From positions 1-64,000 of the forward strand of contig QPGO01000246.1 of NCBI GenBank assembly GCA_008632985.1: a DNA stretch of 64,000 nt, in the 5' to 3' direction. The first letter of the stretch is position 1. Every line of letters begins with the position of its first letter. The notes under the pieces are model-generated. The model was not told the origin of the DNA. It ran no database searches and worked only from the letters and a program-made list of their open reading frames with translations. Of this stretch, positions 1,746-45,848 are shown one piece after another. A program made the position numbers and the translations under genes. The stretch comes from Psammoneis japonica. Taxonomy: Eukaryota.

Positions 1746-1749
1746 ACAG

Positions 1750-17082: not shown

Positions 17083-17285
17083 GTTCACCTGGATTGGGCG
17101 TTGTTGGACGCGGTCTTTTTGGGTTGGGCTCGTCGTCTTGATGATTCGTTGTCGGCGCAACCTTCGCCGGAGTGCGTTTGATTTCACCTGGACTGGGCTT
17201 TGCTGGACGCAGTCTTTTTGGTTTGGGCTCGTCGTCTTGGTCATTCTTCTTTGTCGGCGCAACCTTCGCCAGAGTCCGTTTGAGC
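17083..17285 (-). repeat. ~102-bp tandem repeat in the transposase N-terminal region (NLS-like)
   Basis: AKVAPTxxxxQDDEPxPKRxRPxxPxPGE occurs twice. Confidence 0.85.
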
Positions 17286-19247
17286 GTTCGACTGGAAGAG
17301 CGGTTGTCCCACATGGCCTGGTAGAAAGACGCATCTTTAGGAACATCAAAGTTGTTTGTAGCTGATGCACAGTGGAATCGAACATTCTTTTCTTCTTTTC
17401 CTTCATTTGTTGTACGGACAGTGACAACCTTTCTGTTGAAGCCAACAGTTGCACCTGACGGCAGCGTCGTTTTGCCATTGACAAAAACCAACTTTCGAGC
17501 TGTTGCTGTGTTCAAGATGTTTGCAGCACATTTTGGAAGAGACTTCCCAATGTGTCGGACCCACTCTTCATCTGCCATCCATTGATTGTGCATCTCCGGG
17601 CGTTCGGTTGCTTCAACAAATGCCTCGAAGGCCTCATTCCGGGACGACATCTTCTTCAATTTGTCCCTGCAGCTAAAAGTTTTTTGACATGAGCTCAAAA
17701 ACAGCATTGTCAACAAGTGTGCAAAATTCTTTTAGCTGCCGATGGGCACTTTTCAAGAACGGGGTCGCATCGGCTCTTTGCCCATCATCGTTTGTCGGCT
17801 TCTCCCGTGCTTCAGTGCGAGGCGCGCCAAATTGGAGTGAGCAAAAACGACGAGTCGAGCCAGTCAAGTTTCTTGCGAACCCCAAATTTATTGTTTATTT
17901 CAATTCTATGTGAAGTTTATTGTGAAACGGTTTCTACGGGATCTTGTGCCCACAGATTCTTGTCGAAGTCTAGAATCTCCAGGTCGAAGCGTTTTCCGAT
18001 CGTCCACCCAGAGAGAGGGTGCATTTCCACTTTCCACCGGCATTCTCTGGCACAAAATACGTTAGATGCATCTGATGACATGAAATGGCCACACCTTCTG
18101 GTGGACCACTTGGAGTCTACAAACAACTTTGACATGGGTCATCTTGTGTGGTCATGTCGTCTCCGTTGCCATCTTGCCTTCTTGCAGAGGACACGTGGCT
18201 TCTCTGGCTAGAGGTTGCATGGACTGTGTGCTCCGAACACACCTCCGAAGCACCCTTCTACTGGCTGCTGTAGAAGCGCTCTCTACTGCTAGCTAGAGAG
18301 TAGCCCTAGACTATTTCATAGTTGTCTCTACTCTCTACCGGTAGAGTAAGTGCCGTAAAGGAGCAATGAGATAGATGTTCAGAAAATGACGGTCGGTGGT
18401 CATCAAGACTCAAGAGTCTGTTGCAGTCTTGACCTCATGGTAGAGTACACGTGGCTTTTCCTTTGTTACTTAGGAATGGATACTGAAAGGGTGGTGTTTG
18501 TTAAGTAGGTTTGAGCTGGTTTCTGTGTCTTCGGTCTTGGGGCACTTTTTGTTGTCGGAAACAGGATTGAGTATTCAATTGCGTTGACCTACTTGATCGG
18601 TCATTACGACTAAAAGCATCAGTCTTCTCCTTCCTTATCTATTTGGTCTTGCGGGGCAACTTTTTTGTAATTTTAAGTCTTGCTCAATGTCTTTGCAAGA
18701 CATAGCACTTCGTAGTAAGATTCTGTAGGTTGTACAGCGGTGGTCACAATTCGAATGACTGGCCACGCACGTCGGCTGCGGCGCATTTTTTTGGCGGCGC
18801 ACCAAGCTTGGTGTTCGGTGTTCCATCTCACAACTCAACAAACAGCAACAAACGAAAGAGTGTGTTGCTATTGAAGGCGTTGTCCATTGGTAAGTGTATC
18901 CTTCTGTCCCGTCAATTCAGGTTATCGCTGTGTAAAGGCTGCGTCGCGTCACGTCACATCTCGTTTGGTGAGCCGCTCTGTTTCAACGCGGCGGCGGTCA
19001 TAGGTTCAAGGTCATACGGTTGCGACTGGTGTATGGCTTATCTTTGTTTCCCCATGTGGCTACTTATAAAATAAGTTCGGTTTCCCTTTGGTACTCATAA
19101 GACATATGAGTATTTTGTATCCTTATGGTACTTTTGTAAGATGAAGATTTAGTCATGTGTCTCATCCATACCCTTTCTCGTTTCTCCTCACCGAATTACT
19201 AAGGATTTTTTCGAATCGAGAAAAGTACAGTCCACGCTACGTCCAAG

Positions 19248-21011
19248 ATGCTCCTCAAGTTCAGCTCTGCAGCATCGATCATCTTGTCGCTGCTGGTTCC
19301 TGGTAGCGACGGCCACGGTTTGATTGAAGATCCTCCGTCGAGAAACTGGATCTGTGGCGCAGTCACCAAGCCTCACGAAGTCAACAACGGAGATGCTCAG
19401 TACCCACAATGCGGTACAGCTTTTAACTTTCAGAGGGAACCGGGTGGATACCAGTTCATGTCTGTTTTAACGCATGATGTTGGGCGTGCTGGGGTATCTC
19501 CATTGCCCACCAATGTCTGTGGTTTCGACTCTGAGACTTGGTCTGGTGGATCCACTCCGTGGGACGCCCCCATGGATTGGCCCACATCCCCAGCGACTCC
19601 TGGACGTCAGGAAATCAAGTGGAATATTTTCTGGGGACCGCACTTCTCCGATACCGAAGAGTTCCGCTACTGGATCACCAAGTCAGACTTTGTTTACGAT
19701 TCAACAAGAGCCTTGACGTGGAATGATTTTGAATCTGATCCCTTTTGCTACTTGACGTACAACGATAGCGTTCCCACTGCAAACCCAGACGTGATTCCCG
19801 ATACGGGTAGCGCCACGTTCAGCACCTTTTGTGATGTTCCTAATCGCAGCGGTCATCATATCATTTATGGCGAATGGGGGCGAAACCAGTGGACGTATGA
19901 ACGTTTTCACGGCTGTATCGATTTGGACTTTTCTGGTGGAGGCACTCCTTCTGGCCCGTTTCCATCGCCTCCAGGACCCCCCGGTCCAGCGGGCGGTCCA
20001 ACTCCGTCAACCCCAGTCCCGAGTCCTTCGCCCCCTGTCACGGCCGACCTTGCTCTATCACCAAGTGTCAGCAGCATTACAGGATCAGGTACCATTACTT
20101 TGATTGCTTCAGGGTCTTCGGGAAGCAACCTAAGCTACTCGTGGGCCTTCTCCACACCCTCTGGCGATAATTCCCTCTACTCAATTTCTGGCTCTGGAGC
20201 TACGGCCACTCTGACCTATGGTGATCCTACCGCCGAGCGTTCATTGATGATCATGCTGACCGTCTCCAACGCAGATGGTACCAGTACAGAGTCTGTGACC
20301 ATTACGCATTTGCCGTCCACGACAAGCGGCAGTCAGTGGGTTGATCTAGGGCCCCTGACGGACATGAGCATAGTACTTGATGTGGGAGTCCAGGTGAGTG
20401 TCCGCGCTGTCGACTCTAACGGCGTGGACACGTACTATCCAGACCCAGCATTTGTCGCTGGTACCAGCAACCGCTGGGCCGACAACTGGCCTTACTATCT
20501 TTCGCAAGCGATTTCTGCAAGCGCGCCCATTGCTGTAGGACAGCTTAACACTGCAACTGATAGTGTTGATGGTATCTGGAACGCAACCGGTGCTCACATT
20601 TACGCTCGCGTTGGTAACAATATCAACGCCGCCTATCTACATCTCGCAGATCCCGCACCTGCTCCTACGCCCGCCCCTGCGGGTGGCGGCGGAGGAACTG
20701 GCGGCGGTGGAGAGTGCTCTATTTCGTACCAGGCTGCGTGCAATCCTTGGTGGTGTGGATTGGAAGTGGGATTCGATACTCAGACCATGACCTTGGATTT
20801 CACTGGAAGTGGATTGGACCTATCCACTGTTACACAATTTCAAGGCGTATCGGGTGCAGTTCAAAACGGTGCCTTCACTGTCACTCGGTCCGGCCAGACA
20901 TTGCTCCTACAGAAGGAAGGTTGGGTTAGTTTGGGAAACCGCGGATATTTGGGCTTGAACGGTAACAACGTTCCAGCCCTTGCGACCTTTACATTGCCCA
21001 CTTGCATCTGA
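19248..21011 (+). CDS. AA10 lytic polysaccharide monooxygenase with Pro/Gly linker, PKD/Ig-like and GbpA-like accessory modules
   Basis: Signal peptide ending SDG|H (His1), HGLIEDPPSRN, WGPHFSDTEEFRYWITK, LTWNDFE, VPNRSGHHIIYGEWGR, RFHGCIDL. Intronless. Accessory domain calls are tentative. Confidence 0.9.
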   Translation: MLLKFSSAASIILSLLVPGSDGHGLIEDPPSRNWICGAVTKPHEVNNGDAQYPQCGTAFNFQREPGGYQFMSVLTHDVGRAGVSPLPTNVCGFDSETWSGGSTPWDAPMDWPTSPATPGRQEIKWNIFWGPHFSDTEEFRYWITKSDFVYDSTRALTWNDFESDPFCYLTYNDSVPTANPDVIPDTGSATFSTFCDVPNRSGHHIIYGEWGRNQWTYERFHGCIDLDFSGGGTPSGPFPSPPGPPGPAGGPTPSTPVPSPSPPVTADLALSPSVSSITGSGTITLIASGSSGSNLSYSWAFSTPSGDNSLYSISGSGATATLTYGDPTAERSLMIMLTVSNADGTSTESVTITHLPSTTSGSQWVDLGPLTDMSIVLDVGVQVSVRAVDSNGVDTYYPDPAFVAGTSNRWADNWPYYLSQAISASAPIAVGQLNTATDSVDGIWNATGAHIYARVGNNINAAYLHLADPAPAPTPAPAGGGGGTGGGGECSISYQAACNPWWCGLEVGFDTQTMTLDFTGSGLDLSTVTQFQGVSGAVQNGAFTVTRSGQTLLLQKEGWVSLGNRGYLGLNGNNVPALATFTLPTCI

Positions 21012-27389: not shown

Positions 27390-28404
27390 TCAAATGTATT
27401 TATCCAAGAAGCTTTCAGCACACGGTAATTTTCGGTCTGATTGAAGTAGTTGTATCCATCGAAGCGATTCAATTCACCTTCGATCCAGAGAAGCTCTTTC
27501 TCCACAGGAGCACTACCATGAATGTTCTCAATGTCCTCTGGTGAGGTGAGAGAGTCCTGGCGAACCTGCGCAAAGAACGTGGGAACCTTGATATCACGAA
27601 TAAACGGAAACGGCGACATATCATCCAAGCCAATACCAGCACGCTTCTGCAAGGCTGCTTCAACGCCCTTGACTTCGCCACCTCCAACCATTGGCAGAAC
27701 CTTTTCTGCCATGTACTTCATAGAGATTGGCTGAATACTCGTCATCACTTTCACCTTGTCAAAAATGTCGGGTTCGTTGCTCATGGCTCTAATAGTGGCA
27801 TTCGAACCCTGAAAAGACAAGGCAAACCTGGTATATGAGGTGCATTTTTGTCTACATGTGCATTATCATACCACACTCAGATGTCAAGTTGACGCTAGTA
27901 GCTACTCACCATACACTGGCTGATCAATGCGATGTCCATGTCTTTCAGATTGGCATTGCCGCGGATGTATTCCATGACACCGAAGATATCCTGCCATTCG
28001 AATGCTCCAACGCCAGCCAGTCCACCACTTCCTTCGGCACTTTCACCATGATTGCGGAAATCCATCGAAATCACGTGGTATCCATCGTCGTGTAAGTTCT
28101 TCAGAAGTGGCAAGAACTCAACATGCACGGGAACGAACTGTGCCACAGGCCCTTCAGGAAGGAATCCATATTTGCTGCAATAAAGAGGGTGGTTCATAAC
28201 AGCAAGCTTGTTGGTTTGTCCCTCGGCGGGTACATACCAAGCAGCAAGCTCGGTTCCGTCTTTTGACGGAAACGAGATCTTTTCAAAACCAAGACCATAG
28301 TCGCCGGGAGTCTTGAGCTGCTTGGCCCGGGTGGGACTAGTGAACAGCTGTGCCAAGGTTTCTGCCGGTGGAGCCTGAGGAGTGTCCTCCAGAGAGTCGG
28401 TCAT
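27390..28404 (-). CDS. Alpha/beta hydrolase with a Cys at the nucleophile elbow; intron 27809-27909; probable terminal frameshift
   Basis: FPSKDGTELAAWYVPA, DFRNHGES, spliced ISQCM|GSNA, IKVPT, KELLWIEG..RFDGYNYF. Confidence 0.85.
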
Positions 28405-28579
28405 GATGCCTGGTGGATATGCAACGAGCAGAATGAAGACGACTTCATTCGACGTGCTGATTGATGTGCTGAAAAAGGAAAAAGATACGAGCGACGCGAA
28501 ATAGCGAGCACATGCCGAAAGCACAGCGATCGACCCGCCGCTTGCGCGTCGCGATCCGCCCTCGCGAGGTGCTGAAAAG

Positions 28580-31500
28580 ATTGTGTCGCCCATCATGACA
28601 CAAGGCTTTCATGCTCTGTCTCAACCTCTGGCATCTGTCACTTTTGTCTCAGTCTGGTGCTTGCAGAGGGACAGACCAGTGCCATCTTCCTGTGCTGCAG
28701 GCACCGAGGATGGAACATGGGGCTGCATTCCCCGCGTGCAAAGATGGGCTGTGCCCTCGCTGTCACGACGCTCACCATTCTCGCATCAACAAAGCTGTGC
28801 ACTTCTGAGTGTGGTTTTTGCCATTTGTCTGCAGCAAGCCACGTCTCTGCTGTGCTTGACGCTGCCTTTGTTCTGGCTTCTTTGTTGCCGGGCAGTGCAT
28901 CCACAGCACACACAGTGCCACAAAAGGAGCAAAACGACATCGTTGTTCAAGGCAAGGCTTGAAATGCTTGCACTTTTTTTGTGGTCCAGCAGAACCTGCT
29001 CTGGCGCACGCACTGCTTGAGTGTTTGCCACAGCATCTGTCACTGCTCTCTCCCACACTGGCGCTGACCAAGGTGTCTTTGCAGCCACCATCTCTCGACT
29101 TGCCAGAGTCCTCATTGACACTCAGCAAACTGCTGGATTGACCAGGACTTTTTGAGATGTGACACAGGTTGATGGCAGGTTTGTCATGTGTGCTGAGGAA
29201 GGCTGGGCAGCCTTTGCCAATGGTCTGCCAAGCTCACTCATCACACAAATCTCATCATGACAAGAAATGGCCAGCCCACCCTTCTTGCACTGAAGAGCAT
29301 GTTGAGTGAAAAACTTGCATTTTCACATCATGTGTGTGCACAGGTGTGCAATCCAGTGGAGACATGTCACAGTTTCTTCTGCAATCTGACACTTGGCATT
29401 GTGTTTCTGGAAGCCATGTGCGTCTGACATTGCCCGGCCTGTCAGCTTCTGGGTGGAGGTCCAGCCATCCCACATGTGAGCACCAACGCAGGAGCTGGTG
29501 CAGGCTGTGCATCATTTCTGGGATCAATCATGCCAAGTTCCCAGCCCCCCCCCCCAGCCCTGGCATTGCTGTGAGAAGCTCATGTGTTGGGTGGCTTGAG
29601 TCACTGGAATGCTGGAAAATGAGTGAGCAGGTGGGTGGAGGCAAGGGGCAAGAAAAAAACACAACAACAGAGGCCAGAATGCATGAAGGTGAGGAGGATG
29701 ACAAAGAAAGCAGCAGCAACAGAGAGCCTGCAGCAAATGTGCAAAGATTTGCTGAAATGCCAATGAGACGCAAACAATGGCAAAGGATGCTGCAAAATGT
29801 CTTTGTTGCAAATCTTTTGTGAGACTCTCCAAGTTGTCAAGGAAACTTTGGATGCTGCTGACTGTGCAGCAGCTGCAGCTTCAAAGCTCTTCTCATTCAA
29901 AGATTTTTGCTTGTCATCAGTGTTTCCAGAGAGCCGTCAATGGTCACTTGTGTGTGGCTTTGACATGATCCCCTTGGCAGCCAAGGCACCATTTCACGCC
30001 TCTTCTGTGGATCCCTGTGCACCAGGAGCGGCCAGGACTGGAGGTTCAAGAGCCGCCAATGCCTCTGGCAACTGAACTGTGTGACTTGCCAATGCAGTTT
30101 TAACACAGATCAGAAGGAATGAGAATGCGAAGAGATGTCTGGAGAGAAGCCAGCCAGAGAGCTGCAAGCTCAACTCTTGATTTTCCTCTGGGTGGGTGAT
30201 TGTGCAGAGCTGCCCTTGATGTCAGCAGGCCCAAGTCAGTGCCCTCTTTGCTTTTTCTGCTGGGGCAACAGCAAAACAGAAAGTCAGAGCAAGTGGCAGC
30301 AGCAAATTGGTTGGTTCTTGGGGGCTCTCAAATCACCATTTGTCTTTCTCCCAAGTGTCTGGCAGTCTTGGGGCAGGGAAGAGTGTTTCTTCCCCAGACA
30401 CTGGCAAAGTTCAACTTTTCAATGTGCCGCCAGTCAACACATCTCCAAATTCTTGGAGATGAATGTGCACAATGTCAGGAGATCAACTGGAGCTGTTTGG
30501 CCAGATGTGCCAACCCATGTGCATTGGGTGTGAGATGGACTTGTGAACAAGTGGCTGTCCATCACATGTGAGCTGCGTGCTGCTGTGCACTGCACACAAA
30601 CCAGACATGCAGCATGTGTGGCTTTCAGCTGTGCTGTGTGCTTGCTGTGAAAGCAGCACAAATGACACATCACCTGAAGACACTTGCTCAGATGGCACAG
30701 CAAATTAACCTTCCATTGCAGCAAAGGGGCTGCTGGATGCTGTGATCAATTGTGTGGATGAGCCCAAGGTTGGGGTGTTGTGAACAAAGTCAGGGAGCAG
30801 CAATGATGTTGCTTCCTTCCACAACAAGGCCACAGCCAGCCCTGCTTGAGTTTGTTGCTCTCAGGCAACTCATTTTTTGCTCCAAAAGTTGGTTGGACAA
30901 TTGGCAGGCCAGTGCTGCTGTGGTTGCTTTTGCCAGCCCACTTCCCCCAGCAACAAGCATGCCAGGTGCATGGACAGCCCCCTTCATTGCCCAGCTCTTC
31001 ATCTTGTGCACATTTGTGGCTCCAATGAAGCAAGGCAGACAAGCCTGCAACAAGGCCATTTCCCAGCACCACACAGACAAACCTTTTGCATTGCAAGGAG
31101 CGATGTGATTCTCACAGAGAGCTCCATGGCCCGACCTGCTTGTGGTGTGTCTTGGGGGGCAGTGTTGGACAGTTTGCATGCATGGCTTGTGACGACTGGA
31201 CCAATCACCAGCAATTTGCAGCTTGGCATCTGCAAGCAAGAAGGAAAAACACAGGGGGCCAGGATGCTCACTCTGTGACTTGCAGCAGAGTTGCTTTCAA
31301 CCATGTGTGCACTTCTTGTGCCTTGCACATGGTTTCCACTCATCACCAACGTGGCACCCAGTGCTGACAAGACACACTTGAGATGAGCCAATTTCAAGAG
31401 AGCCCAACTTGCCACAAAGGCAATCAGGCCATTGTTGCCAGGCAAGGTGGCTGCTGAAAATTCACTTCCCCCTGCTTTTCTTTTTTTCCCAGAAGGGCTG

Positions 31501-34095
31501 CAATTCCACAAGTCCTGAAAATTGAGCCACTTTCCAATGTTGATTTGCAGATTCATTGTGGAGTCTTCCATCAGAGCATGGGTGCAACATGCATGCTGCC
31601 TGGTGCCCACCCATGGAGGCAAGCTCATCTTCAAATGAGGCACAGAGCAAACCCACGCTGTGGCTGTTCAAAGATGAGGCAGCTCCCAAGTGGCAGCAGA
31701 TTGTGCAACCCTTCTTGCCCAACCCCAAACCATCATGGTGAGAGATGAAACTTGAAGGTGCAGCAACTCAAGCACAAAAGCAAGAGCCCAGAATTTCCTC
31801 ACATGCTCAAGGCTGGAGTCACCAACATGCTCATGTGCTGCTGAGGCAGTTGGCAAAAAATTGCACCCCTCCATGTGTGGGGCCACCTGCTGGCACCAGC
31901 ACATGCACCTGTCAACACAAGGCTTGCATGCTTCCACAACAGTCTTGAAGTGAAGCTCATCATCAAGTCATTGGTGGCAATGCCCCCCCCCCCCACTTCA
32001 GGTTCAAGAAACAACCAAACTGGCTGGCTGGTGCCTGAGAGCATGGCTGCCAATGACACTGAGTTTCCAAGAGACAAGCCTGCAGACAATTTGTTGTTCA
32101 AGACAGTGCCCATGGGAGGGAAGGGTGCAACGCACCCTGCCCTGCTGCACCAAACTGCTTCACAGCTGCAATGAAGGTTCTTTTGCCAGAGCAGGAGGGG
32201 TTGAAAGAAGCCAGAGACATCTTCAAAGGAAGCCAAGCCCCCCAGTTTACAAACACCAAGTCTCCAGCGGCAATGTGCTTGAGCATGTTTCACCACCACA
32301 ATGCTTTTGGTTGGCAACAAACAAGCCACCATTGCAGACAAAAAAGAGAGCTTTGGGAGTGGGCGCCTCTCCACAAGGCAAAAAGCCTTGACCAACTTTT
32401 CTTGGCAGGCACACAGTGTGCATTTCCTTGGCTGTGTGCTTCTTCTGGCTTGACTCATTTGTGTCCTGAATGATCATCTCACAAAACACAACCATGCAGG
32501 TGTTCCTTCAATGAATCAACTGCAAATGTTTTTGAACAGTGCTGCTCCCCCACAGTCTTTTGTTTTTGCTTTGACTGTGCATGATTTGAAATGCTCTTGT
32601 TCAAGGGCTTTGTGGTCATCTGTTGTTTTCTTGACAGCGGGCTCAGAGAAACATCCCTTGCTGAAAAAAAAGCCTCCATGTCAGCCATTTGAGCTGCAAT
32701 GCAGAGCATGTCTTTGGTGTTCAGCACATCATGTTGGGGCTCACACCACCAGCATTGAATGCCTGGGAAATGCCTTGCTTTTCTGTGGTGTGAGTCAGCA
32801 CATTTTTGAGGCCAATGGCAGCATCCTGTCTTGAGTGTGCAACATTGAGAGGGTTTGGTTTGCCAAGTCTGCAAAACAACAAAAATTGGCCACCTGATGT
32901 CTGCCTTTGCAGCCCTCATGATTGTTTGCACTGGCCATGATTGTTTGTGGCCATTGAACCCACCACAAATTGTTGGGGCTGGCCATGGCACAACAGCATC
33001 AAATTGCCAGAGCACTGCACCCATGTCACTTGATTTTTTGTTGAGCACTGCACCCGTCACTTGATTTTTTGTTCTCAAACACCACACAAACCTCCCTTGA
33101 GCTGGCAAACAACTCATCCAAGCTTTGTGCTGCAGACACTCTCTCTCACAGACATGTTTTGCCAAGCAACTCAAGCGCGGCAGCTCAGCTGAGGTGCTGC
33201 CACCTCCTCTCCTCAACCAAAACATCATTTGCGTGTGCACACTGCCATTTGTCTTGATGGCAGTCTTGTGCTCATGAGATGCTCCTGCTTCTTGGTGGAC
33301 GAGATTGTGTGGGCACAATTGGCAAAAGAAGAAAATCTTTTTGACTCAAAGCAGGGGGGGCTGTGCCTTCTCGGTGAACGAGATTGTGTGGGCACAATTG
33401 GCAAAAGAAGAAAATTTTTTGACTCAAAGCAGGGGGGGTTGTGCAGCATTAACTTGCTCTTTTGACAGCCTCACACCAGCCAAAGAGCGGAATTTGGAAA
33501 AGACAGACTTTCTGTCAGTGTCTCTTGGCGTCTCCGCCAAGTCAATGATCATGACAAGCACTGTTCTTGATGATGTCTCTTCGTTGCAATTTGCAAGAAG
33601 TCTTGTTGCAACAGCATCTGCAGAGTCTCTTTCCACACATTTGCCAGGTGCAGAGACCATCAGTGTTGTGAGCAGCTCCAGCAACAAGAAAAGAGCCGTG
33701 AGAACAGCCACCTGGCTTGCGCAAATTTGACGTTTTTCTTTGACCAAGCTGGCTGTCATTGTGTTTCATGATCACTTCTTTGAAAAGACCAGCACAGCTG
33801 CACATGACACATAAAGAGAGAGTGCTCCTCAGAGAGCTCAGCAACAAAGAGAAAAGAAGCACAGGCTTGAACCCGGCACAGCTGCTTTGCTTTTTGAGCC
33901 ACACAGGAGGGCAGAGTTCTCCCGAAAGGAGGCGAAGTGAACCAAATCAATGCTTTGACATGGGGTCACCCATTTCCCACCATTGTTCCCATTGCTTTAC
34001 AAAATTAACAAAATTGTTGGCAACAAACCAACACTGTGTGGTGTCTTGTGGTGGTCTCCAGGTGAGAGTAAAACAAGCTGTGCTCGGTGCTCGAC
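28580..34095. pseudogene. 5.5-kb TpA/CpG-depleted domain with eroded, unidentified coding remnants
   Basis: About 8 TpA seen in ~5.5 kb. Cys/His-rich overlapping ORFs. 33424-33759 has an N-terminal TM-like segment. No TIR or LTR found. Confidence 0.55.
33288..33444. repeat. ~79-bp tandem duplication
   Basis: cttct(t/c)ggtg(g/a)acgagattgtgtgggcacaattggcaaaagaagaaaat..gactcaaagcaggggggg(c/t)tgtgc x2. Confidence 0.92.
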
Positions 34096-34343
34096 AGATG
34101 GGGGGGGGGGGGCGGGTGATGCGAGATGCGATGGGCGCGCGGCGAGATGAAGTGAACGACGTCAACGACCTGACGTCACAGTTTCAGTTGGAGGGAAAAA
34201 ACGAACGAAAAAAAACCGCGACGTCGCGGGGCGAGAATAAGCATAATGATGAGCAATGAGGCAGGGGGAATAAAGAACACTTTCTCTCCTCACTGGCACT
34301 GCCAGAGGACGACAAAACAAAAAGATCGATTAGGAAAAACCCA

Positions 34344-35681
34344 ATGTTGTCGATTTTCATTAGTTACCTGCTGGCAAACACATTGTTTGTTCAAGGCTTC
34401 ACGCTTTCGCGGTCAACGTCCCGCAACGGCGTCGTACCGCTTTCATCCGCGGCTTCAGATGACGAAGAAAAGCGAATGGAAATGGTTCGGCAACTCCAAA
34501 AGACCTTTTACAACTCTGCTGCTGATGAACAGGACAGGCCGCAACTGGAAAAAGAGACTGGTCGAGTCACGAATCTTCCACTGTGGAGAGTCGGATGGAT
34601 TGAAGTTCCCGGACGAGCAAATTGTTTGAATGTGCACGAAGGTCACTACACCAACATGTTTGAAAAGATCATTTCTGGACCAAAGCCGTGGTATTTTGGG
34701 CACTTGTATCTGCCTGGAGGAACCAAAGCCGCCCGAACAGACGAAAAGCGTTTTCAGCTCAAGAGCTGGCGGGACGAAATCCAAGACACGGATAGGTTTG
34801 ATCAAGAGGAGCGATCGGCCGTTGTAGGGTGTTTAATGCGTATCACAGACTTTCGGCGACTTCAAGATGGACGGCTCACGATATTGGTTCATGCTCTGGA
34901 GCGATTTGTGGTGGATGAGGTTGTGGAATCCTTTCCTCATGGTGTTGCTCATGTACAGATCCTACCAGATACAGAAGACATGCCGACTAAGGTTGACGAG
35001 AATTTTGGCAAAATTGCCCGGGCAGATGCGGTAAGGCGATCCTTTCAATATCATGATTACGAATGCGATTCAATAGAACTGCCACTGCCAAAAGATACAG
35101 ATTACATGTCAACACAAGACGTGGGTGTGTATGGATTGAAAATTGCAAAATGCTTGCCGTTTGCCTTTTACTCCAAGAATGACACGTCCTTGGAAAGAAT
35201 AGAACCTGTCAGTAGCCGCTATGACGAAGGTAATTGTAGTTTTGCAGGTGGCCAACCTCTACTGGAGGAAAGATTGCAAGCGGACTTGGTTCTGCGGAAC
35301 CCTCCACCGCTTCCTGGTGTCAAGAGCCAAGCGTCACAAGACGCAGACGCGCTTGAAAAGTTCATCTGGTTGGCATTGGAAGATTTTTGTCGAGCGTCCG
35401 ATTTTGTTCTTCCAGAAGAAATATTGTGTCTGCTGCCTCCCGACATGGAATACCTTGACATGGGCCCTCCAAAGCAGTGCTTGTCAGACAAGTACCCCAA
35501 GCAGCGCCGGCAGCGTAGACTGAGCTACCACTTGCCAAAATTGATCGAGAACACAAACGTTGGCGCCGCGATTCCCATGCGGCAAGTCTTGTTGAACACA
35601 CCGAGCACACAAGCAAGACTAGCGGCAGTGTTGGAACGCTTTCAGTTGATCAATGATGCCGTAATGGGACAATTCCAATAA
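34344..35681 (+). CDS. LON peptidase N-terminal (substrate-binding) domain protein, likely plastid-targeted
   Basis: Signal peptide ending VQGF; LPLWRV..EVPG..LNVHEGHYTNMFE, VVGCLMRI..DGRL..ALERF, RQVLLNTPSTQARL. Confidence 0.7.
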   Translation: MLSIFISYLLANTLFVQGFTLSRSTSRNGVVPLSSAASDDEEKRMEMVRQLQKTFYNSAADEQDRPQLEKETGRVTNLPLWRVGWIEVPGRANCLNVHEGHYTNMFEKIISGPKPWYFGHLYLPGGTKAARTDEKRFQLKSWRDEIQDTDRFDQEERSAVVGCLMRITDFRRLQDGRLTILVHALERFVVDEVVESFPHGVAHVQILPDTEDMPTKVDENFGKIARADAVRRSFQYHDYECDSIELPLPKDTDYMSTQDVGVYGLKIAKCLPFAFYSKNDTSLERIEPVSSRYDEGNCSFAGGQPLLEERLQADLVLRNPPPLPGVKSQASQDADALEKFIWLALEDFCRASDFVLPEEILCLLPPDMEYLDMGPPKQCLSDKYPKQRRQRRLSYHLPKLIENTNVGAAIPMRQVLLNTPSTQARLAAVLERFQLINDAVMGQFQ

Positions 35682-36000
35682 TGTCCGAAAAAACGAAAGA
35701 TTACTTCGTTAGAAACATTAGAGTAGATATCGAAATTATGTGAGCGAAAAGTTGGGTGGAAGGAGTATAGCACAAAAGATGGGGCTTCGCAACTATTGGG
35801 AACTAGGAGCATCTTTTTATCATGATATCATCTCTAGCCCTAGTATTATGATCAAAGTGTGTTCCCTCGTAAATGCAACAACCTGCTCTCGAGAAACAGA
35901 ACTGCAGGTCTGCACCCTCTGTGCGCCCAATACACGTGGCACCCTTTCTAGCTAGCTATTACTGCAAAGCTAGTCATTTATGTCGGGCAGTAAGCCAAAT

Positions 36001-37541
36001 TCATTGGCCAGTCTTGGACTCTTCTTGTGCCAACTTGTCTTCATCCTTGACGATCGCTGGCTCTTGGACAGCATGTTGCTCTTTCTTGGACTGAATCTGC
36101 TTCAAGTAGTCTCTTGGGTCAAGTTTTCCAGAAGCAATTTGCTCGGCGATTTCAACAGGCGCAGCGTTGGCGGGGTCCTTGATGGTTTGAGAATGCGGTG
36201 CTTCTTGACTGAGTTTCGGTGGAGGTTCTTCTCCAACCTTGCTCACGTCTCGGGGTTTCCAGTACTCATCCTTTTTGTTTTCAAAGAACTCAACCCACGG
36301 TGCCCAGTGGTCCTTCTTGACGTACGACAGTGGCGGCGCCCCACGGCAGTCCACCACGTTCAGTAGCCGTTCGTCAGCCTTGAGAATGAGTTCTACACAT
36401 TCAAAGCTCGGCTCGGCTGTCCAGCAGGCGTCATGAAGCGGCGTTCTGCCAAAGTCATCCGTAACCTGTAGGGAGCAACCCGCGTCCAGCATCACCTTAA
36501 GAAGCTTGGCGTCTCCCCGTCGGCAGACCATGTGTACAGCAGATTCACCAAAGTTATTGCATGGATTCGGACTGAGACCGCAGTTGAGCATGTCTCTAAG
36601 AAGCGTTTCGTTCGAAGCGCGGATCGCCTGTATCACTTTGATGCCGTAGGATGCCTTTTGCAGAGGTGATGGTTTGCAATAGTAGCCACCCTCTAGTGAA
36701 CAGAACTTCTGATTCGAATACCCTCGTGAATCGATAATTTTGTCCAGGCACTTTTGCGGAGAAACCTCGACCTTATCGAGAACCTGTACAGCAAGCGAAA
36801 AGCACAACTTAGTCAGACTCTGGCATACGAAACATGATTGCCTCTGTTTCTCGCTATTGTACGTACCGCTGATGATGATAATGACCTAGGTATATCTGTT
36901 TTCCCTCCCACAACTTTGCGGTACTTGTAGCTACTCCCCGACAAGTCACTCGGTGCACTATTGACACGCGTACTGAGTCCCCCCTCGCTCGTGGTTTTGA
37001 TTTTGTTTTGCTGTTCCACAATACCTTGAGCTCGTACCGTAGCACGGCTCGCAGATGAATAAAAGCGTGGCTTGGAAGGTTGAGGCGCAATCTTTTCGGG
37101 TGGCAGTGTGAAACCTCCACTGGGAGCAAACGCAATCTTATTGGAAGTCCGCAGCAATGCTTCTGTGGCAGGTCGCTTCATGCCCGCTTTCGGAGAGCGA
37201 AAGGATGCAGTTTGATTTGAAGCATTCAGTTGTTGCTTAGAAGCAAGTCGAGCCACTTGATTTTGTGGTTGCTGTTGTTGCTGTTTTGCGTTTTCTATTG
37301 TGGGTGGAGGTTGTCCAGCTGTCGTGACTGTGATTGGGTATGCTGTTGGTAATGTTGTGGCTGTGTTGTTTGCGTGACTGATGTGAATTAACGTGGGCGA
37401 AGGCGTCACGGCTGGGATCTGAAACCCAGCGGCCTTTGCTTCCTCGGTGGGGCGAATCAAGTGTTGCGGACCATTGTTGCTAGCATTGCTACCGGGAGCA
37501 GTCGCTGTAGTGCAAAAGAATGGTCCTGGTGCCGATGCCAT
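36001..37541 (-). CDS. Ankyrin-repeat protein; intron 36784-36866
   Basis: GLSPNPCNNFGESAVHMVCRRG, DDFGRTPLHDACW, DCRGAPPLSY; low-complexity N-terminal exon. Confidence 0.85.
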
Positions 37542-38769
37542 TTTGCTGTGTTGTTGTCCTTACAGATTAGAAAATTGTCTTCCCGATTGTGGTCTTTGTG
37601 TGCAATCCCAAAGCAGCTGCGATATGGTTGAAACTGAAGAATACAGATCCATCTGTGTGCTGCAGATGTTGTTGACAGTACTGGAGCTCGATCGCATGCA
37701 AAGAACATCGGGGGTGATGTGTTTTGTTGATCACGTCACATCAGATCAGCTGTGAAGGGCCAAAAGGCCAACAGCAGGTCGATTTGTTGCGACGTGGTCG
37801 CTGCGACACGTGTGTGTGTTGTCGTGTCACACACACGTAGGTATTACTTATGGTAAAATATCAAAGAAGGGCGATTCAGATGTCAATGTGTCCATGTCGA
37901 TAATTAAATAAATCGATGTCCATGCGACGTGGCACGAAAATAGAGGGAAACGGAACTCGCTGAAAAATTTCCTACGTAGGTTTTACGTTAAAGCTGGTAC
38001 GGGTGCATTTCGCATGCACTGAGACGGCCGGATGGCGTCACTCTAACGCGAGAAACAGCTGGGCGATATCAATTGATTCCGTCATACTTTCGTAAAGAAT
38101 AAAAAAGGGCAGTTACAAAGATACTTCAATCTTTGTGTTTCTGGGAATGTTTAAGGGTCAAGCGTCATACTTTCTTTGTTTCTGTCGTTTCCGATGCAAC
38201 ACTTAGATCATTGGCGACACGAATTACATCACTGCCTCTTCTACAGTATCTTCTGTGTGTCTGCCGACCGGCCGCCGACACAAGTCCTGTATGTGGACGG
38301 GGGACACCCGCGCGCGTTCGATCCACCTCCGATGGCAGCGATTGACTGGCGATTGATGCCAACACTTGGCGACATTCTACTCTCTAGCTAGCTCGAGCTT
38401 AGTACTGCTCCGACCGAGTTAGACTCGAGCTAGAGGGCCTACTGAACAAGTAAAGGAGTTGGAAATACATTAGTTCCTGTCCGCACTATCTCAGATTAAA
38501 TAAAGCTCTTCCTTCATAAATGTAGTAGGGATCTTACTCTACTCTCTAGGCCCTACTAGCGACCATGAAGTTGCTGCCTTCCCTGTCGCAGTCTTTTTAA
38601 AAACGATCAGCTCTAGCGGTGGTCCAAGAAAGAAGCAGTTGAATTGGTGGATCTAAAACAGTCGGCTCACCTATGGTTTGTAGACATGATTGCCATTATT
38701 TGAGATAATTTTCAGTTTGCGTTTAGTATAAATTATAATTGTGTAGTTCCTGTAGACGTGTGAAGTTTC

Positions 38770-39417
38770 TCATGCAGCAATCGCCACTCCCTTTGATGTG
38801 TTGCTGTCTAAACTAACCATTTCCTGTTGAGTAGCAGTGCTCGATGCCTTCTCCATCATCCTCATCATTGATGCATCAAGTCGGCTTCGACCTGGTGCTG
38901 GAGCAGTCAGGGAGCGTTGATCGGCCAATCCCATTTGGTTGGCAAATATTCTGGCGTTCTTTGATAGCAATTGGGAGACTCTTGCCAATTGGTCGCTATT
39001 GACTCGGCCAAAGTGCTTTCGTTGAACTTCTTGATCATGAATGACAGCCTTGATAGCTTGCTGCTGCGAACGCTTTCTTTCTGAACCGTGCCTTCTGCAG
39101 CACCACATTTCTAAACCTCGTCGAGACACTAGGCGTGTCGTCCACTGCTCAAGAACTCGTTGCGTCCGTTGTCTTGACGTTGCTCTTGTGTTTCCAAAGG
39201 TATTGTCAAGGATGTTGCTACAGCTCGATTGTCTCGATTCCCGTGCGATCATTTGGGCCTGTAACTTGAAAGTATCGTAATCTTCACTACTCCACCATGA
39301 CTCGTCATCATCGAACTGTGTTCTACGAATGTCGCTCTCGATGTAAGTCTTTTCTTCTTGGAAGCGCACCCTGCATCGATGCGTTTGCGTTTCTTGTTCG
39401 TTATCTTGATTGCCCAT
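38770..39417 (-). CDS. Diatom-type 'VRF..RGLE' family hypothetical protein
   Basis: RVRFQEE, WWSSEDY, SRRGLEMW, ANQMGLAD. Confidence 0.8.
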   Translation of the reverse strand: MGNQDNEQETQTHRCRVRFQEEKTYIESDIRRTQFDDDESWWSSEDYDTFKLQAQMIARESRQSSCSNILDNTFGNTRATSRQRTQRVLEQWTTRLVSRRGLEMWCCRRHGSERKRSQQQAIKAVIHDQEVQRKHFGRVNSDQLARVSQLLSKNARIFANQMGLADQRSLTAPAPGRSRLDASMMRMMEKASSTATQQEMVSLDSNTSKGVAIAA

Positions 39418-40749
39418 GTTGACGGCTAACAAAAAAGGAAAGAGAAAGGAACTGATGGGACTGCTAAACAGTAAAGTGGTGTGTCGAAAAGGGGAAGGGG
39501 AAGAGATGAACGGTGAACAAAGAGAAGTTGTTCTTTTGTCAAATACCCCGACGCATTCTCACACTCACTTCTCTTGGGCGTGACCCTCCTTTTAGCCAAT
39601 CACATCTCGTGAAAAAATCTGGACAGATGACCAAAGAAGGGACATTTGGTAAGTATCAGATTGAATGAGAAAACATGATTAGAAATCGCTCCCAGGTCAC
39701 TTTCGACGTGAAGTGAGGGCACAAATACACAGCTGTAGGTATTGGCGGGAAAAACGAATCCAAACACGTTGGGTCACATCGGTATTTAACAAATTTTCAA
39801 AATTACTGGGGCATATATAGAGTTTATTTATAGAAGGAGATAGTAAAGATTTCCCGCCATTTTGATACGGCGCTGTTCGTGGTATCGACAAAATTTTTCT
39901 TCGTCAGCTATGTGGGTGGATTTATGCCCGCGGTCTTTTCATCTACCAAACCCTGTGTGTGTCCACCTCACCGTTTTGGTCGCGGCAAAAGTGACCGACA
40001 CATTGATCTCTTGTTGGGACTCAATCTTCTCTTACTTGTACGGATGAAACAGAACAGTGTGATCAAAGACGCAGTGCCGCTTCCCCGAATTACAATGTCT
40101 CTTTTGATATGACATGTCCGAGTCCAGTCGAGATCTGGTAGTCCCGGTGGCTTCCGCCACACGATGAAGTAAGCACACAGAATTGGGCGACCTGCACACA
40201 AGACGGTTGGGCCTGACGTCCAAAGTTCAACATCCTCATGCAGAAGAATGTTGGAGGCTCCGTTCAAAATCACGGTGCTTTGGTGCCAACCTCCAGCAGT
40301 AAGTAGGAACTAGAGAGTAGAGAGAGCGAGGCGAAAGGCACCACCCACCTGACCCGCGTCACAGAGAGTGCCTGAACAAAAGGCCAAAACTTACGAAAGC
40401 GAAAAGCGTGGTATCATAGCGAAAAATCAGATGATACGAACGGTGCTCTACCTACTATGACATAACTTTTAGTATCCCTACTTACTGCTCTTCTTTAGCT
40501 ACTAGTACCGTAGCTCTAGAGTAGAGTGTTGGAAGCAGCGCGACGATCACGGGACTCACCACAAACTGCTTTTCGTGGGCCGCGTCCACATCGCGCACAC
40601 CGCGGGAGCGTCGACGACGCGACGACACGGAACACGGACGCGATTGGAGATTGGAGCGCAGGCGGTGGATGCGGTGCCGCAGCAATCAACAACAGCAACA
40701 GCCCAAGTTCAGACCACCGTACTTCTGCTCGTTTTAGGTCTCATTCACC

Positions 40750-43700
40750 ATGTTTGAGAAGACTCTGACAGATGTAGTCAAGGGCATTCGTGCCTCCAAG
40801 CGAGATACGGCTCTTTACATTTCTCAATGCATTGCCGAAATCAAGGTCGAAATCAACTCGACTGATCCTTACGTCAAGGCGAACGCACTGCAAAAAATCA
40901 CATTTCTCCAAATGATGGGGTACAGCATGAGTTGGGCCAGCTTTGCTTCCATTGAAGTCATGAGCTTTCCCAGATTTGCGCACAAACGAATAGGCTATTT
41001 GGCGGCGTCACAGGGCTTTACTCAAGATACCGATGTAATTCTCCTGACAACGAATTTACTCAAGAAAGAACTTCGCGGAGCTGTCGGTGGGAGTATGAGG
41101 GGTGTGTATGAAGCTGGATTGGCGATCAACTGTCTGTCAAACATTGTCACAGAAGACTTGGCAAGAGATTTACTACCCGAAGTTACAAACCTTACAAAGC
41201 ACCCTCAACCTTACCTGAGAAAAAAGGCGGTTTTGTGCCTCTTCAAACTGTTTATCAAGTACCCTCAAGGCTTACGCTTGACCTTCGCGAAGGTGCAGCA
41301 ATGCTTAGATGATCAGAATGCCTCGGTTGTGTCATGCGCAGTCAATGTAATTACCGAGCTCAGTGACAAGAATCCCAAGAACTATCTGCATTTGGCCCCT
41401 GCCTTTTTCCAGCTGCTTACATCGAGTAGTAACAATTGGATGCTCATCAAGGTGGTCAAGCTTTTAGGCTCGCTTGTTCAGGAAGAGCCGAGACTGGCGA
41501 GGAAATTGTTGGAACCGCTAGCAAACATTGTCAAATCGACTCAAGCAAAGTCACTTCTTTACGAAGCCGTCCATACCATTACGCTCTCCTTACCATATTG
41601 CAGAAAAGCCGACGGAACAATGCCGCCATCCGTTCCAGGCATCGTTACCCTCTGTGCTCAAACGTTACGCGAGTTTGTGGAGGAATCCGATCAAAATTTA
41701 AAGTATCTGGGGTTGGTGGGATTTGGATCGCTCATGGCGTCTCATCCAAAGGTTCTAATGGCACCGGATTACCGCCCACTCATCCTGGCATGCCTCAGTG
41801 ATGAAGATGTCACTATCCGCACCCGCGCTTTGGATTTACTAGGCGGAATGGCATCCCGAAAGAACTTGCGCGAGCTCGTTTCTCAGCTTGTCAAGCATGT
41901 CGAACTCGCGACGGGCGAATATAAGAATGATTTGGTTCTCAAGATTGTAGAAATGTGCTCTTCGGACAGATACGCCTTGCTGCAAGATTTTGCGTGGTAT
42001 CTTGATATTTTGCTGGAACTAGGACACGAACGCGGTATTGACGTTCATGCCGAATTATTAGCCAATCAAGTATCAAATGTCGCGCTGCGTGTCCTTCCGG
42101 TTCGAGCTTATGCCGTGCAACGAGGCATGGAGGTTTTGTATGAAGGCGAGAAATCAAGGAAAGTCCTCCAAGGCAATCTAGGAAATGCTGAAGAAGACGA
42201 GGATACTTTTGCAGCAGATAACGGACGTGGGAAGCATATAATGCCGGAAATACTTCCTTCTGTGGCGTGGCTTGTTGGAGAATACTCTGATTTAATTCGC
42301 GACGCCGACATAGACGAAGAAGGCATTGCCGCGATGCTTAAGACTTACAAGGGACTCTATCATGGGACAATTGAATCTCTCTTGGCTCCATCCAATACCC
42401 AGGAACTTCAAACTACAACTCAAAGTGTCTATGTGCAAGCCGCAATGAAGGTATTTGCGGCTGCCACGGGCGATGGCAAGGTTTCTGGGAAAGAGCTAGA
42501 ATGTTGCGTGGAGTGTCTATCGAAGTATTTGCCATTGTACATGCAGAGCACCAATGTGGAAGTGCAGGAACGTGCGTTTACTTTGTACGAGCTGCTTCGC
42601 GCTGTCGACATTCTTTCGGACGGTTCTTTTGGCGCAGACATGCCCAATCTGGCTCTTCTAGGAAACAACGAAGAAGATTCTTCGAGTGACGAAGATAGCG
42701 CTGGCGGTGGCCTAGAAGGCGATTTGCTTGGAGTAGGATCGGGGTCCAGTCAGGGCCAGAACAAGAGCACAAAGAAGAAAAAGAGCGTAGCGGCTGGTGC
42801 ATCTTCTTCTGTTTCCTCCAGGTGCCGAGCTGCGTCGTCCACATTGCAATATCTGCTCAAGCCAGAACCAATGAAGCCTATTAGTGCCAAAGCTCAACGA
42901 AAGAAACGACAGGCGCCTATTGGCTTTTCAGCGGAAGTTTTAGATGCGCCGGTCAACATGGATGTGTTTGCCGACCTCTTGGAGGAGGAGCGGACGCATC
43001 GACCAAGTGGTGGAGGACTGGTTAGCATCGAGTCTGTGAGTTTTACCCAGCAACGACCTTTACGAAGCGCCGCAACCACGACCCCGGCACCAAACGTTCG
43101 ACAACCTTTTACTGCTGTACAGCCATCGACTGTAAGCGACGGCGTAGGCGGTAACACCTTTCCTTCCGGCTTCCAATCCACTACCGGGGGAATGGGAGAA
43201 GCGGGAACCCTTGCCCCTCAATTGAACCGTCCACCAAACCAGCATGACCCGTTCTATCTCAATTCAGGAGGTGAAACTAACATGGATGTGGAATCCCGCG
43301 AGCAACAGGGCAACGTGTTTGGAGCCATCCAATTGGTCGACAGTGATGGAGAAGAGGACCATGAAGTTAGCCCCAAAAAGAAAAAGAAGAAACAGCGTAA
43401 GAAGGATCGAAGCCGGAAGCAAAAGAAGGGGGATGCAGTTACAACCCAGATAGGTTTGGAAGATTTTGCAATGCTCTCCATGACAGACACGTCTCAGAAA
43501 CCATCAGCAGCCATGGATTATACTGTTTACGGAAGCGACGAGGAGGAGCATGGAGGAACGAACCATGCTCGTGGCTCTATTACGGGGCGTAGAGGAAGTG
43601 GGATCGTCAACAAGGAATTTGACTCACTTTCAAAAATTGATTTGACTACACCATTGAGGGAGGACGAAGTCATGCCGACGAGAGAGCACCATGTCGTGGC

Positions 43701-44820: not shown

Positions 44821-44837
44821 TAAATAGAAAGAACCGT

Positions 44838-45848
44838 TCAATCGTCTCTTTCCATGCACATCTCTTTAGGCAGCTGCCACTTCCCGGTAGCGTATTTCAA
44901 CCGCATTCGCAGTACCTCAAGGAGCATAACTAAAGAAACACGAATAGTTCCACCCGGTTCCTGTTCCAATTTTGAACCCTTCTTGTCTTGCCACACAACG
45001 ACGCGCTCCGCTACTGGCACTTTGAGACGCTTGGCCCGAAAAATCACTTCCACGTCGTGTGCCCACCTTGTGAGATACAAGTTTTGATAGAGCATTTGAG
45101 CCGCACTTGCCGTCATGAGTTTGAATCCGCATTGCGTATCTCGCACACCTAAATTTCCACAACACAGCAGCACGGTTGTTCGAAAACCCCATCTTGTAAT
45201 GGCACGAGATACGGACGTTCCTTGATAGCCACGATCACCAACCACCATGGCTGGTTTTGTAAAGTCGCCCTGTACAAGATCTGTCAAGTCTTGTAGCAAG
45301 TTTTCAACACACGAAATCTCGCCGCTCCCGTCTGCGTCAGCGACCAAAATAATGCCTCCGCAGCCTTCATCCTGTTGTTTAATGACTTCTTGGACGCCTC
45401 TGGCTATCGCGGCACCCTTTCCTGTATTCTTTTCCAAGCTTACAACTTGAATAGGTGTACAGGAACTGTTTCTTTTCGAACTGATTTTCTTTGCGACATT
45501 GACAGTTTGATCCGACGATCCATCACTCACAATCAACATTTGGCTTGTGAATTGAGGGTGTGTTTTTGCCTCATTCTTTTCACCTCCAATCGAAAACTGA
45601 TCTAGATAGCTGGAATACCGCTGAATTGTTTCCGAAATCCGATCTTGTTCATTGTACGCCGGAAGTATGACGGTCAACCTCGGACGAACATTATGGTTTT
45701 TTCCGTTCTGAAATGTACGTGTTGCCAGTCCTTCGACGCGAGGGCTTATAATAAAGCAAAACGATGCAAAGATCAACCCAAACTGTAACGATAATGTCAT
45801 TACACCTTTCCAGCATAGCACTGGTGAGGGAACAGGCCGATGCTTCAT
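44838..45848 (-). CDS. ALG5: Dolichyl-phosphate beta-glucosyltransferase-like GT2
   Basis: VILPAYNE, SDGSSD, NTGKGAA, ADADG, DTQCGFKL, WAHDVE, W..KKGSKL. Start uncertain. Confidence 0.8.
   Translation of the reverse strand: MKHRPVPSPVLCWKGVMTLSLQFGLIFASFCFIISPRVEGLATRTFQNGKNHNVRPRLTVILPAYNEQDRISETIQRYSSYLDQFSIGGEKNEAKTHPQFTSQMLIVSDGSSDQTVNVAKKISSKRNSSCTPIQVVSLEKNTGKGAAIARGVQEVIKQQDEGCGGIILVADADGSGEISCVENLLQDLTDLVQGDFTKPAMVVGDRGYQGTSVSRAITRWGFRTTVLLCCGNLGVRDTQCGFKLMTASAAQMLYQNLYLTRWAHDVEVIFRAKRLKVPVAERVVVWQDKKGSKLEQEPGGTIRVSLVMLLEVLRMRLKYATGKWQLPKEMCMERDD

Follow-up and report, generated by a model that had tools for sequence, protein, structure and literature searches.

Strand-wise flank preference in the regional loss of TpA from repeats of a diatom genome

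In ascomycetes, repeat-induced point mutation (RIP) turns CpA into TpA and lowers GC, requires repeat pairing and a sexual cycle, and involves a RID-type methyltransferase. A process confined to TpA itself has been described for the integrated viral DNA of Bigelowiella natans, where A:T>G:C hypermutation is restricted to TpA, affects both strands and is regional (Mettrop et al., 10.64898/2026.01.13.699255). The preprint also reports TpA-poor clusters enriched in transposon domains, an adenine deaminase that is proposed, not shown, as the agent, and a rate per generation raised about 1000-fold, measured in lines and active in some of them only; the main text gives no flank rule, and the supplementary mutation table may hold the flanks (10.64898/2026.01.13.699255). 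RIP is cited there as a comparison (10.64898/2026.01.13.699255). Flank preferences are described, in the available sections of three studies, for TadA-derived editors, which favour YAY and disfavour AAA (PMC10188366), favour TAT (PMC11983105) and prefer TA genome-wide in rice (10.1101/2022.02.09.479813). For diatom transposons, methylation of the DNMT5 type is likewise reported in the available part of its source (PMC9998398). Here we examine the loss of TpA in the first 64,000 bases of contig C246 in a 91-Mb eukaryotic assembly, G000 (C246:1-64000, "the window"), starting from an erased domain near 28580-34095, and in young Copia retrotransposon families and other repeats.

There are four TA-poor domains in the window (215-7019, 14734-17888, 28503-34237 and 56589-57906), in which TG and CA are elevated, GC is unchanged at 0.48-0.51 and the AT dinucleotide is not depleted; three of the four are also CG-poor, while flanking genes retain about 42 TA per kb. 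Positions 28580-34095 (GC 0.50, with CG low as well at 10 per kb) contain 8 TA, where a background density of 42 per kb would give roughly 234. These are 30101 (tttTAac), 30706 (aatTAac), 32248 (gttTAca), 33450 (catTAac), 33812 (acaTAaa), 33998 (cttTAca), 34006 (aatTAac) and 34069 (gagTAaa). An earlier note on this DNA had listed the same eight, and rightly so: all are present, no other TA occurs there, and every one lies in TTA or TAA (8/8; p = 0.0015 against 44% among the domain's TG/CA precursor sites). The sites it cited at 3087, 3613, 5520, 56896 and 1381 also have the letters it gave. From them it proposed that a 5′ T or a 3′ A protects a site, so that the target is V-TA-B (V, not T; B, not A). 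Mutations polarised in young repeats point to a different rule.

The first family, F1, is a young 6.6-kb Copia family with a real copy as reference (L057:1925-8495) and 22 further loci that are 86-99% identical; 21 of the 22 were used, L099 being excluded since its best match repeats the stretch of L093, and a site was accepted if 4 or more of 5 lightly hit copies match the reference. The 21 copies carry 1586 TA>TG/CA events at 245 sites, 901 to TG and 685 to CA. A TG outcome marks a change on the + strand and a CA outcome one on the - strand, so the split reveals the strand that was hit, and it varies sharply with the flanks (TG/CA 5/32 at GTAA, 147/32 at TTAC, 3/19 at GTAG and 213/78 at CTAC). 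Models were fitted with local exposure, and intervals come from a site bootstrap because site-by-copy records are not independent. The negative log-likelihood is 2173 without context; adding the 5′ base brings it to 2131, the 3′ base to 2005 (4 parameters) and the two together to 1966. Strand-symmetric recognition of the tetramer was rejected, as its model fits worse (2062) than the 3′-base model despite 10 parameters. Relative to C, the rate by the base 3′ of the changed A is 0.23 for A (0.13-0.34), 0.35 for G (0.24-0.47) and 0.90 for T (0.63-1.31; all 95% site bootstrap), while by the base before the T it is 0.94 for T (0.62-1.35), 1.41 for A and 0.79 for G. Once context is fitted, the strand terms are 0.94 and 1.04, that is, there is no strand preference. 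Bases further out have smaller effects: A at +2 gives 0.45 (0.24-0.58), T at -3 gives 0.50 (0.28-0.75) and A at -3 gives 2.07.

It is thus the 3′ base of the changed A that sets the rate; a 5′ T in itself makes no difference. The apparent protection by 5′ T is the mirror of the 3′ A on the opposite strand: TTAC or GTAA is shielded on one strand only and is therefore lost through the other. A 3′ G also protects, which lies outside the V-TA-B proposal. In F1 hot zones the sites kept are 41/76 TTAA (54%), 53/138 CTAA/TTAG and 12/43 CTAG, compared with 56/325 RTAA/TTAY (17%), 70/492 RTAG/CTAY (14%) and 37/483 RTAY (8%), where R is a purine and Y a pyrimidine. RTAA/TTAY, the TTAC/GTAA type said to be protected, thus disappears at nearly the same pace as RTAG/CTAY, the GTAG/CTAC type; RTAG/CTAY and CTAG are both targets under V-TA-B, and that part of the proposal fails. 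In another family, F6 (489 records at 273 sites, from 4 loci compared with a single TA-rich copy), the 3′-base rates relative to C are 0.25 for A, 0.24 for G and 1.46 for T, with 5′ T at 1.22 (0.48-2.89). Its kept fractions match those of F1 in outline (TTAA 5/14, CTAA/TTAG 12/25, CTAG 6/15, RTAA/TTAY 14/79, RTAG/CTAY 17/71, RTAY 2/88). At asymmetric sites the TAY strand prevails in 94 of 112 decided cases in F1 (131 with ties) and 73 of 97 in F6 (136 with ties). Rates estimated from repeat families, as the earlier note had suggested, do differ by context in both, and we regard the strand-wise TAY rule as close to certain.

The rule also applies to survivors in old domains, defined by CG alone in a pool of 720,815 non-redundant bases (91 segments, chiefly loci centred on repeats, together with 70 kb chosen by location, C246, and C304 without its copy of the domain). 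The CG-poor domains outside the window hold 89 TA in 32 kb, with 12 V-TA-B, 54 YTAR and 1 RTAY, against 4400, 1022 and 2317 of 6961 background TA (Fisher p 7e-22 for V-TA-B and 2e-14 for RTAY). Survival is accordingly far from uniform across tetramer contexts in the pooled 721 kb, the outcome that the earlier note had expected. The F1 rates, which were fitted without the old domains, rank 94 survivors against 9027 TG/CA precursors with an area under the curve (AUC) of 0.84, compared with 0.71 for V-TA-B and 0.77 for the 3′ base alone, and TA per precursor drops from 0.059 to 0.0005 across the predicted rate classes. A birth-death model of the old survivors reaches a chi-square of 31.5 with tetramer rates and 129.8 without context; creation bias alone was rejected for this poor fit.

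The domains of the window and the neighbouring gene are as follows.

28591-34097, no strand: old TpA- and CpG-erased domain of decayed repeat-derived DNA without recognisable protein (8 TA, CG 10 per kb, GC 0.50)
215-7019, no strand: another old erased domain, containing direct repeats at a distance of 5.7 kb (V-TA-B 2/12 TA)
14734-17888, no strand: TA-poor yet CG-rich, less advanced domain (V-TA-B 8/14 TA, contrary to the V-TA-B proposal)
56589-57906, no strand: small erased domain with a single TA, TTAA at 56896 (V-TA-B 0/1)
34260-35681, + strand: host gene with a LON substrate-binding domain and normal TA, marking the sharp right border of 28591-34097

That V-TA-B sites are nearly gone from the other domains is thus true of 215-7019 and 56589-57906, but not of 14734-17888, which the earlier note had omitted. 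Likewise, the CTAG at 1381 that it gave as an exception is present, but another CTAG lies at 1286. The direct repeats at 68-1728 and 5756-7597, about 5.7 kb apart, add a sharp border within one repeat: in the right copy erasure extends to about 7020, and the part past that is TA-rich. The TTAA at 1527 is TCGA in the other repeat copy.

The domain 28591-34097 has a second copy at C304:43715-49142 with 92-93% identity, while the flank at 34278-49800 (15.5 kb) is 98.2% identical. Contigs from one short-read run cover 30 of 30 bins of 28400-35400, with the window form and the C304 form both present at similar depth, for which reason the two are most likely alleles; this run may be the assembly's own sample, making it a check on the assembly and not independent biology. 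Of the 14 TA sites of the two alleles, all of which fall in the lowest 36% of predicted rates, 10 are confined to one allele, and 3 of the 4 shared ones lie within the last 100 bases of the domain. T[A/G] accounts for 5 of 111 single transitions between the alleles in the domain (the flank has 19 of 105); among double changes in the domain, CA<>TG makes up 15 of 38. Changes that create TA or CG are carried onward to TG or CA. The TA confined to one allele, together with the TTAA/TCGA pair at 1527, indicate that many survivors are largely recent arrivals in slow contexts and not old protected sites. The TTAC survivors cited in the earlier note are tTTACa, slowed by the outer bases, and position at the domain edge may add to the survival of the TA at 33998, 34006 and 34069. 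The sites and other features of the domain are listed here.

30100-30103, no strand: TTAA, TA only in the window allele (TG in C304), among the slowest 6% of precursor sites by predicted rate
30705-30708, no strand: TTAA only in the window allele (allele comparison)
32247-32250, no strand: TTAC within tTTACa, found in both alleles; the exposed strand is shielded by -3 T and +2 A, which makes the site slow (predicted rate among the lowest 4%)
33449-33452, no strand: TTAA only in the window allele, TGAA in C304 (allele comparison, short-read contigs)
33811-33814, no strand: ATAA only in the window allele, with TGG for TAA in C304 (allele comparison)
33997-34071, no strand: three TA common to both alleles (TTAC 33998, TTAA 34006, GTAA 34069), in the last 100 bases of the domain
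33288-33420, + strand: 79-base tandem duplication only in the window allele (sequence comparison)
28654-29320, no strand: divergent fragment from a dispersed repeat family about 1.1 kb long (13 other places, 70-92% over 49-183 bases)

The loci matching 28654-29320 have 1.0-1.2 kb in common among themselves, and there are additional weak matches across the same interval. None of 9 open reading frames (ORFs) tested in 28591-34097 reached the Pfam cut-off, nor did any of 5 ORFs in related loci; a tblastn search with 754 ORFs of the collected loci matched the first 700 bases of the domain only. No further copy of its right end was found besides C304, and no holder was listed for the domain in the RNA search. 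The homology between C246 and C304 starts exactly at 28591, the left edge of the domain, and upstream of it C304:33000-43715 is a TA-poor, CG-rich block of 10 kb that is absent from the window.

Young copies also show when and how the changes arise. Copia copies and relics are hit while flanking host genes are spared, and near-identical F1 copies range from unhit (0) to more than 90% hit. The same F1 site is TG in some copies and CA in others, and the long terminal repeats (LTRs) of 15 F1 copies carry 117 hits in the 5′ LTR and 61 in the 3′ LTR, with 38 identical in both. Because LTR hits are mostly non-identical and the TG or CA outcome is copy-specific, most F1 hits struck chromosomal DNA after insertion; some were inherited through later transposition. 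Hit density peaks at 500-1500 (66%) and drops to 6-8% at 5500-6500. Across this family (L057:1925-8495 and L078-L098) loss is heaviest just inside the 5′ end and fades to the 3′ LTR, as if nucleating and spreading, and the 5′ LTR is spared in some copies.

The spectrum in F1 hot zones is narrow. A>G changes number 923/1298 at TA, 25/2994 at AA, 35/4004 at CA and 12/3956 at GA, and the 995 A>G changes in total stand against 5 transversions (3 A>C, 2 A>T). The small leak outside TA (72/10954, 3-7 times the cold-zone level) obeys the 3′ rule, with 63/5011 at NAY (50 positions) against 9/5943 at NAR, and non-TA A>G in cold zones has no 3′ bias (21/11794 vs 17/13267). TAAY became TGA 43 times, TGG 9 times and TAG 0 times, and TAAR became TGA 72 times and TGG 0 times; the TAAY>TGGY doubles, which fall on a few recurring positions, hint slightly that edits may be coupled. 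Strand-coordinated clusters were considered and rejected: 216 of 395 neighbouring pairs within 10 bases are on the same strand against a permutation mean of 213.5, and strands are not coordinated at any distance up to 400 bases. CG loss is also greater in hot zones (84/3307 vs 32/6482), although in 18 young F1 copies TA loss (TA>TG/CA/CG 1199/4224) is about 11 times CG loss (CG>TG/CA 146/5909). The CpG loss is best read, by analogy, as methylation decay of 5-methylcytosine.

Together, these observations point to a regional mutator that acts on the chromosomal DNA of this diatom's repeats after insertion, changing A:T to G:C almost exclusively at TpA, on both strands alike and site by site, with slower CpG loss in the same places. 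It acts best where the strand with the changed A reads T-A-Y: a 3′ C or T speeds the change about 3-4-fold relative to G or A, and bases at a distance of two have smaller effects. The duplex rate is the sum of the two strand rates, so that TTAA, CTAA/TTAG and CTAG, with a 3′ purine on both strands, last longest and RTAY go first. Old domains are in a birth-death balance, in which transitions and CG decay create TA that is erased unless its context is slow. The earlier note read its survivors as enzymatic specificity rather than drift. The strong flank dependence, the restriction to A:T>G:C almost only at TpA and the regional pattern bear out that reading as far as the signature goes; the enzyme itself is something we infer, and an enzymatic agent is likely. 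It may convert adenine to hypoxanthine in DNA, fixed at replication, through a deaminase of the TadA/ADAT2 type (or another) recruited to silenced chromatin. By analogy with the TadA-like TAY preference, we consider a repeat-targeted DNA adenine deaminase the probable chemistry.

Profile searches of the assembly gave 10 matches to PF00383, 4 matches to PF02137 in 2 genes, and a match to PF04493 (endonuclease V), with no match to PF02245 (AAG/MPG), PF12851 (Tet_JBP) or PF05063 (MT-A70); the last search says little, as it gave no match in any control genome either. From translations, motifs and Pfam matches, L135 is ADAT2-like and L132 TadA-like, and both may be ordinary tRNA enzymes. Two A_deamin genes (ADAT1/ADAR fold) with catalytic motifs occur, L141/L142 on C79 and L140/L143 on C40, and an atlas search with the C79 deaminase exon returned the A_deamin family alone. 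None of the genes from these profile searches, whose scope leaves aside ADAT3 and deaminases of the APOBEC-like and toxin-derived kinds, stands out as the mutator. At L134:316-1785 (- strand) a deaminase domain is joined to a 2OG-Fe(II) dioxygenase, and a decayed deaminase-like piece at L139:1318-1773 (- strand) adjoins a TA-poor stretch.

Several points weigh against a TAY-preferring adenine deaminase. The deaminase genes resemble an ordinary household set, no enzyme is tied to the process, and the C79 A_deamin gene has relatives across many diatoms. Endonuclease V can act on inosine in DNA, and its gene is present here. Engineered TadA requires single-stranded DNA, yet the hits have no strand coordination. 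The sequence cannot separate a change on A from one on the paired T, and since -3 T mirrors +2 A, part of the outer effect may be duplex shape. A 5′ purine raises loss about 2-fold in F6, and in F1 A alone does so. The tetramer birth-death model, at a chi-square of 31.5, still underfits the old survivors, and the pooled survivors are not a genome-wide count.

The inseparability of A from its paired T opens the way to a process with T as the target, in which thymine in R-T-A is modified or damaged, for instance oxidised so that it pairs with G, and T>C results. As T>C in RTA mirrors A>G in TAY, this is compatible with every count. We nonetheless think it unlikely, if worth keeping in mind, given the pure transitions, the likeness to the TadA motif and the lack of a Tet_JBP match in an assembly that may be incomplete and where other dioxygenases exist. 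Somewhat less probable still is an ADAR/ADAT1-fold deaminase acting on the DNA strand within RNA:DNA hybrids that arise from transcripts of repeats or from small RNAs. The two A_deamin genes on C40 and C79 and the hits that are densest near the element's 5′ part and fade 3′-ward would suit it, and ADAR edits DNA in hybrids and favours 5′ T, in the part of that study available (PMC5389660). The same part, however, has TAG (94%) and AAG (81%) as best edited, with AAT at 43% and CAC at 53% (PMC5389660), whereas a 3′ G slows the process studied here (to 0.35 and 0.24 of the rate with C); the strand terms show no preference, and the C79 gene is related to many diatom genes. An adenine mark such as N6-methyladenine (6mA) at TpA in silenced DNA, later deaminated or miscopied much as 5-methylcytosine decay removes CpG, would carry its writer's context; the CpG loss of the same domains offers a parallel, and the regional spreading suits a chromatin mark. 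Eukaryotic 6mA is found mostly at ApT, whereas AT is not depleted here; with the MT-A70 search blank, though it was equally blank in the controls and shows little, we rate the mark as distinctly improbable.

Error-prone repair synthesis of the polymerase eta type in methylated repeats draws on WA, a known A:T hotspot of somatic hypermutation in the accessible portion of one source (PMC6423074), and on the CpG loss raised in hot zones. But AA takes about 85 times fewer hits than TA and no more than CA, transversions from A number 5 against 995 A>G, same-strand clusters are lacking and TA loss is about 11 times CG loss, all of which makes this very improbable. Hardly credible is the view that there is no context rule at all, only drift, composition, TA origin, selection or assembly artefact. 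It can point to a domain with n=8 only, to 3 of 4 shared survivors at the edge and to many new survivors, but creation bias leaves a chi-square of 129.8, rates differ by context in two families and the short-read contigs carry the same TA-less sequence. As for RNA-level editing of retroelement transcripts followed by reverse transcription, the 38 LTR hits identical in both LTRs mean that some changes pass through transposition; with sense-strand CA (685) nearly equal to TG (901), most LTR hits in a single LTR and copies that differ by site, its probability as the main route is next to nil.

Beyond G000, related Copia reverse transcriptases were confirmed at 520 metagenome loci, the best 80 of which were compared. 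The RTAY fraction in these best 80 is 0.011 in L189, 0.015 in L186 and 0.043 in L222, with 0.222 as the next lowest and a median of 0.298. Counting L186/L189 once (98% alike) and adding L222 and the first 3.6 kb of L203 (1-3600, chosen after viewing its profile), RTAY makes up 6/237 TA against 4907/15,886 in 75 other loci, while V-TA-B makes up 117/237, so the V-TA-B rule fails there too. The pol frames of L186, L189, L222 and L203 contain 0-0.9% Tyr and 6-9% His plus Cys, and these loci are at most 71% identical to the collected G000 loci over about 300 bases; they probably derive from other organisms, and the RTAY loss of these three Copia families suggests that the mutator also operates there. 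The +2 effect is not seen in them (AUC 0.63), and coding constraint may shape their survivors. The pair L186/L189 has too few changes to polarise (T[A/G] 4/10 single transitions). In another pair of metagenome records, L181 and L184 (98%), T[A/G] makes up 24/63 single transitions, of which 19 have a 3′ pyrimidine; this hints weakly at an early stage.

In TA-poor G000 families (L028, L030, L047 and L049-L051) the conserved reverse transcriptase Tyr is His or Cys (YVDD to HVDD or HTDD), and, since the loss of TA deletes TAA and TAG stops as well, the reading frames run on for 600-2200 codons. A 330-base element with 44-base inverted ends lies within a Copia copy (L060:2524-2850), about 30 copies of it being listed at 93-98%, and window positions 3017-3336 belong to another dispersed repeat of about 320 bases (85% to L124, 78% to L060). 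Immediately left of the domain 14734-17888 is a 223-base direct repeat (13882-14104 and 14383-14605; 98%, 501 bases apart). Window genes have few introns and are alga-like; all relatives with a name within the best 120 hits of a gene from another contig belong to diatoms, and on that ground the genome is taken to be a diatom's. One window gene, at 19203-21011 (+ strand), carries LPMO_10 and GbpA_2 domains, a type that acts on chitin and is usually bacterial.

That nature may use an enzyme to deaminate genomic adenine in defence was proposed previously, and the strand-resolved motif narrows the class of enzyme: T-A-Y, with an N-A-Y leak, no strand clusters and nearly no transversions (5 against 995 A>G), which yields a prediction for the B. 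natans mutation table. RTAY loss with YTAR kept, together with Tyr to His or Cys, would be a cheap marker for other lineages, and unchanged GC with vanished catalytic Tyr explains why transposon relics in such genomes escape annotation. Tentatively, and with somewhat less than even confidence, we envisage a natural defence in diatoms and in at least one metagenome organism. A guided DNA adenine deaminase would start at the 5′ part of silenced transposons and spread, editing double-stranded DNA in chromatin site by site with T-A-Y preference. Such a reverse RIP would strip tyrosine codons, could be an old defence of the SAR supergroup shared with Bigelowiella, and might be a source of a natural DNA A-to-G editor.

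Set against known systems, the process here works like that of B. natans and has its sequence features. In the literature covered, outside which most subscription papers lie, the B. natans preprint alone was relevant to this process in diatoms or to a natural DNA adenine deaminase with TA context; a TpA-only A>G process was thus known. As far as the available text of the preprint goes, both processes are near-pure A:T>G:C at TpA on both strands (901 TG and 685 CA here), in foreign or repeated DNA with host genes spared, whereas here the host is of another supergroup, the targets are multi-copy transposons and relics, erasure is near-complete, CpG is lost too and the rate is read from copies. 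RIP is alike in being confined to repeats, making dinucleotide-specific transitions on both strands and ruining transposon genes. It runs in the opposite direction and was rejected as the process here, where TpA is erased instead of raised and GC, at 0.48-0.51, is not lowered. DNMT5-type CpG decay would account for transposon restriction and the slower CG>TG/CA loss in the same domains, but it cannot remove TA, which is lost about 11 times faster in young copies. The TadA-derived editors ABE7.10 and ABE8e (adenine base editors), as far as their available descriptions reach, resemble it in A>G changes, a strong 5′ T and a 3′ pyrimidine preference; they are engineered and linked to Cas9, whereas the process here is natural and repeat-confined, with a far stricter 5′ T, CA being about 80 times slower than TA.

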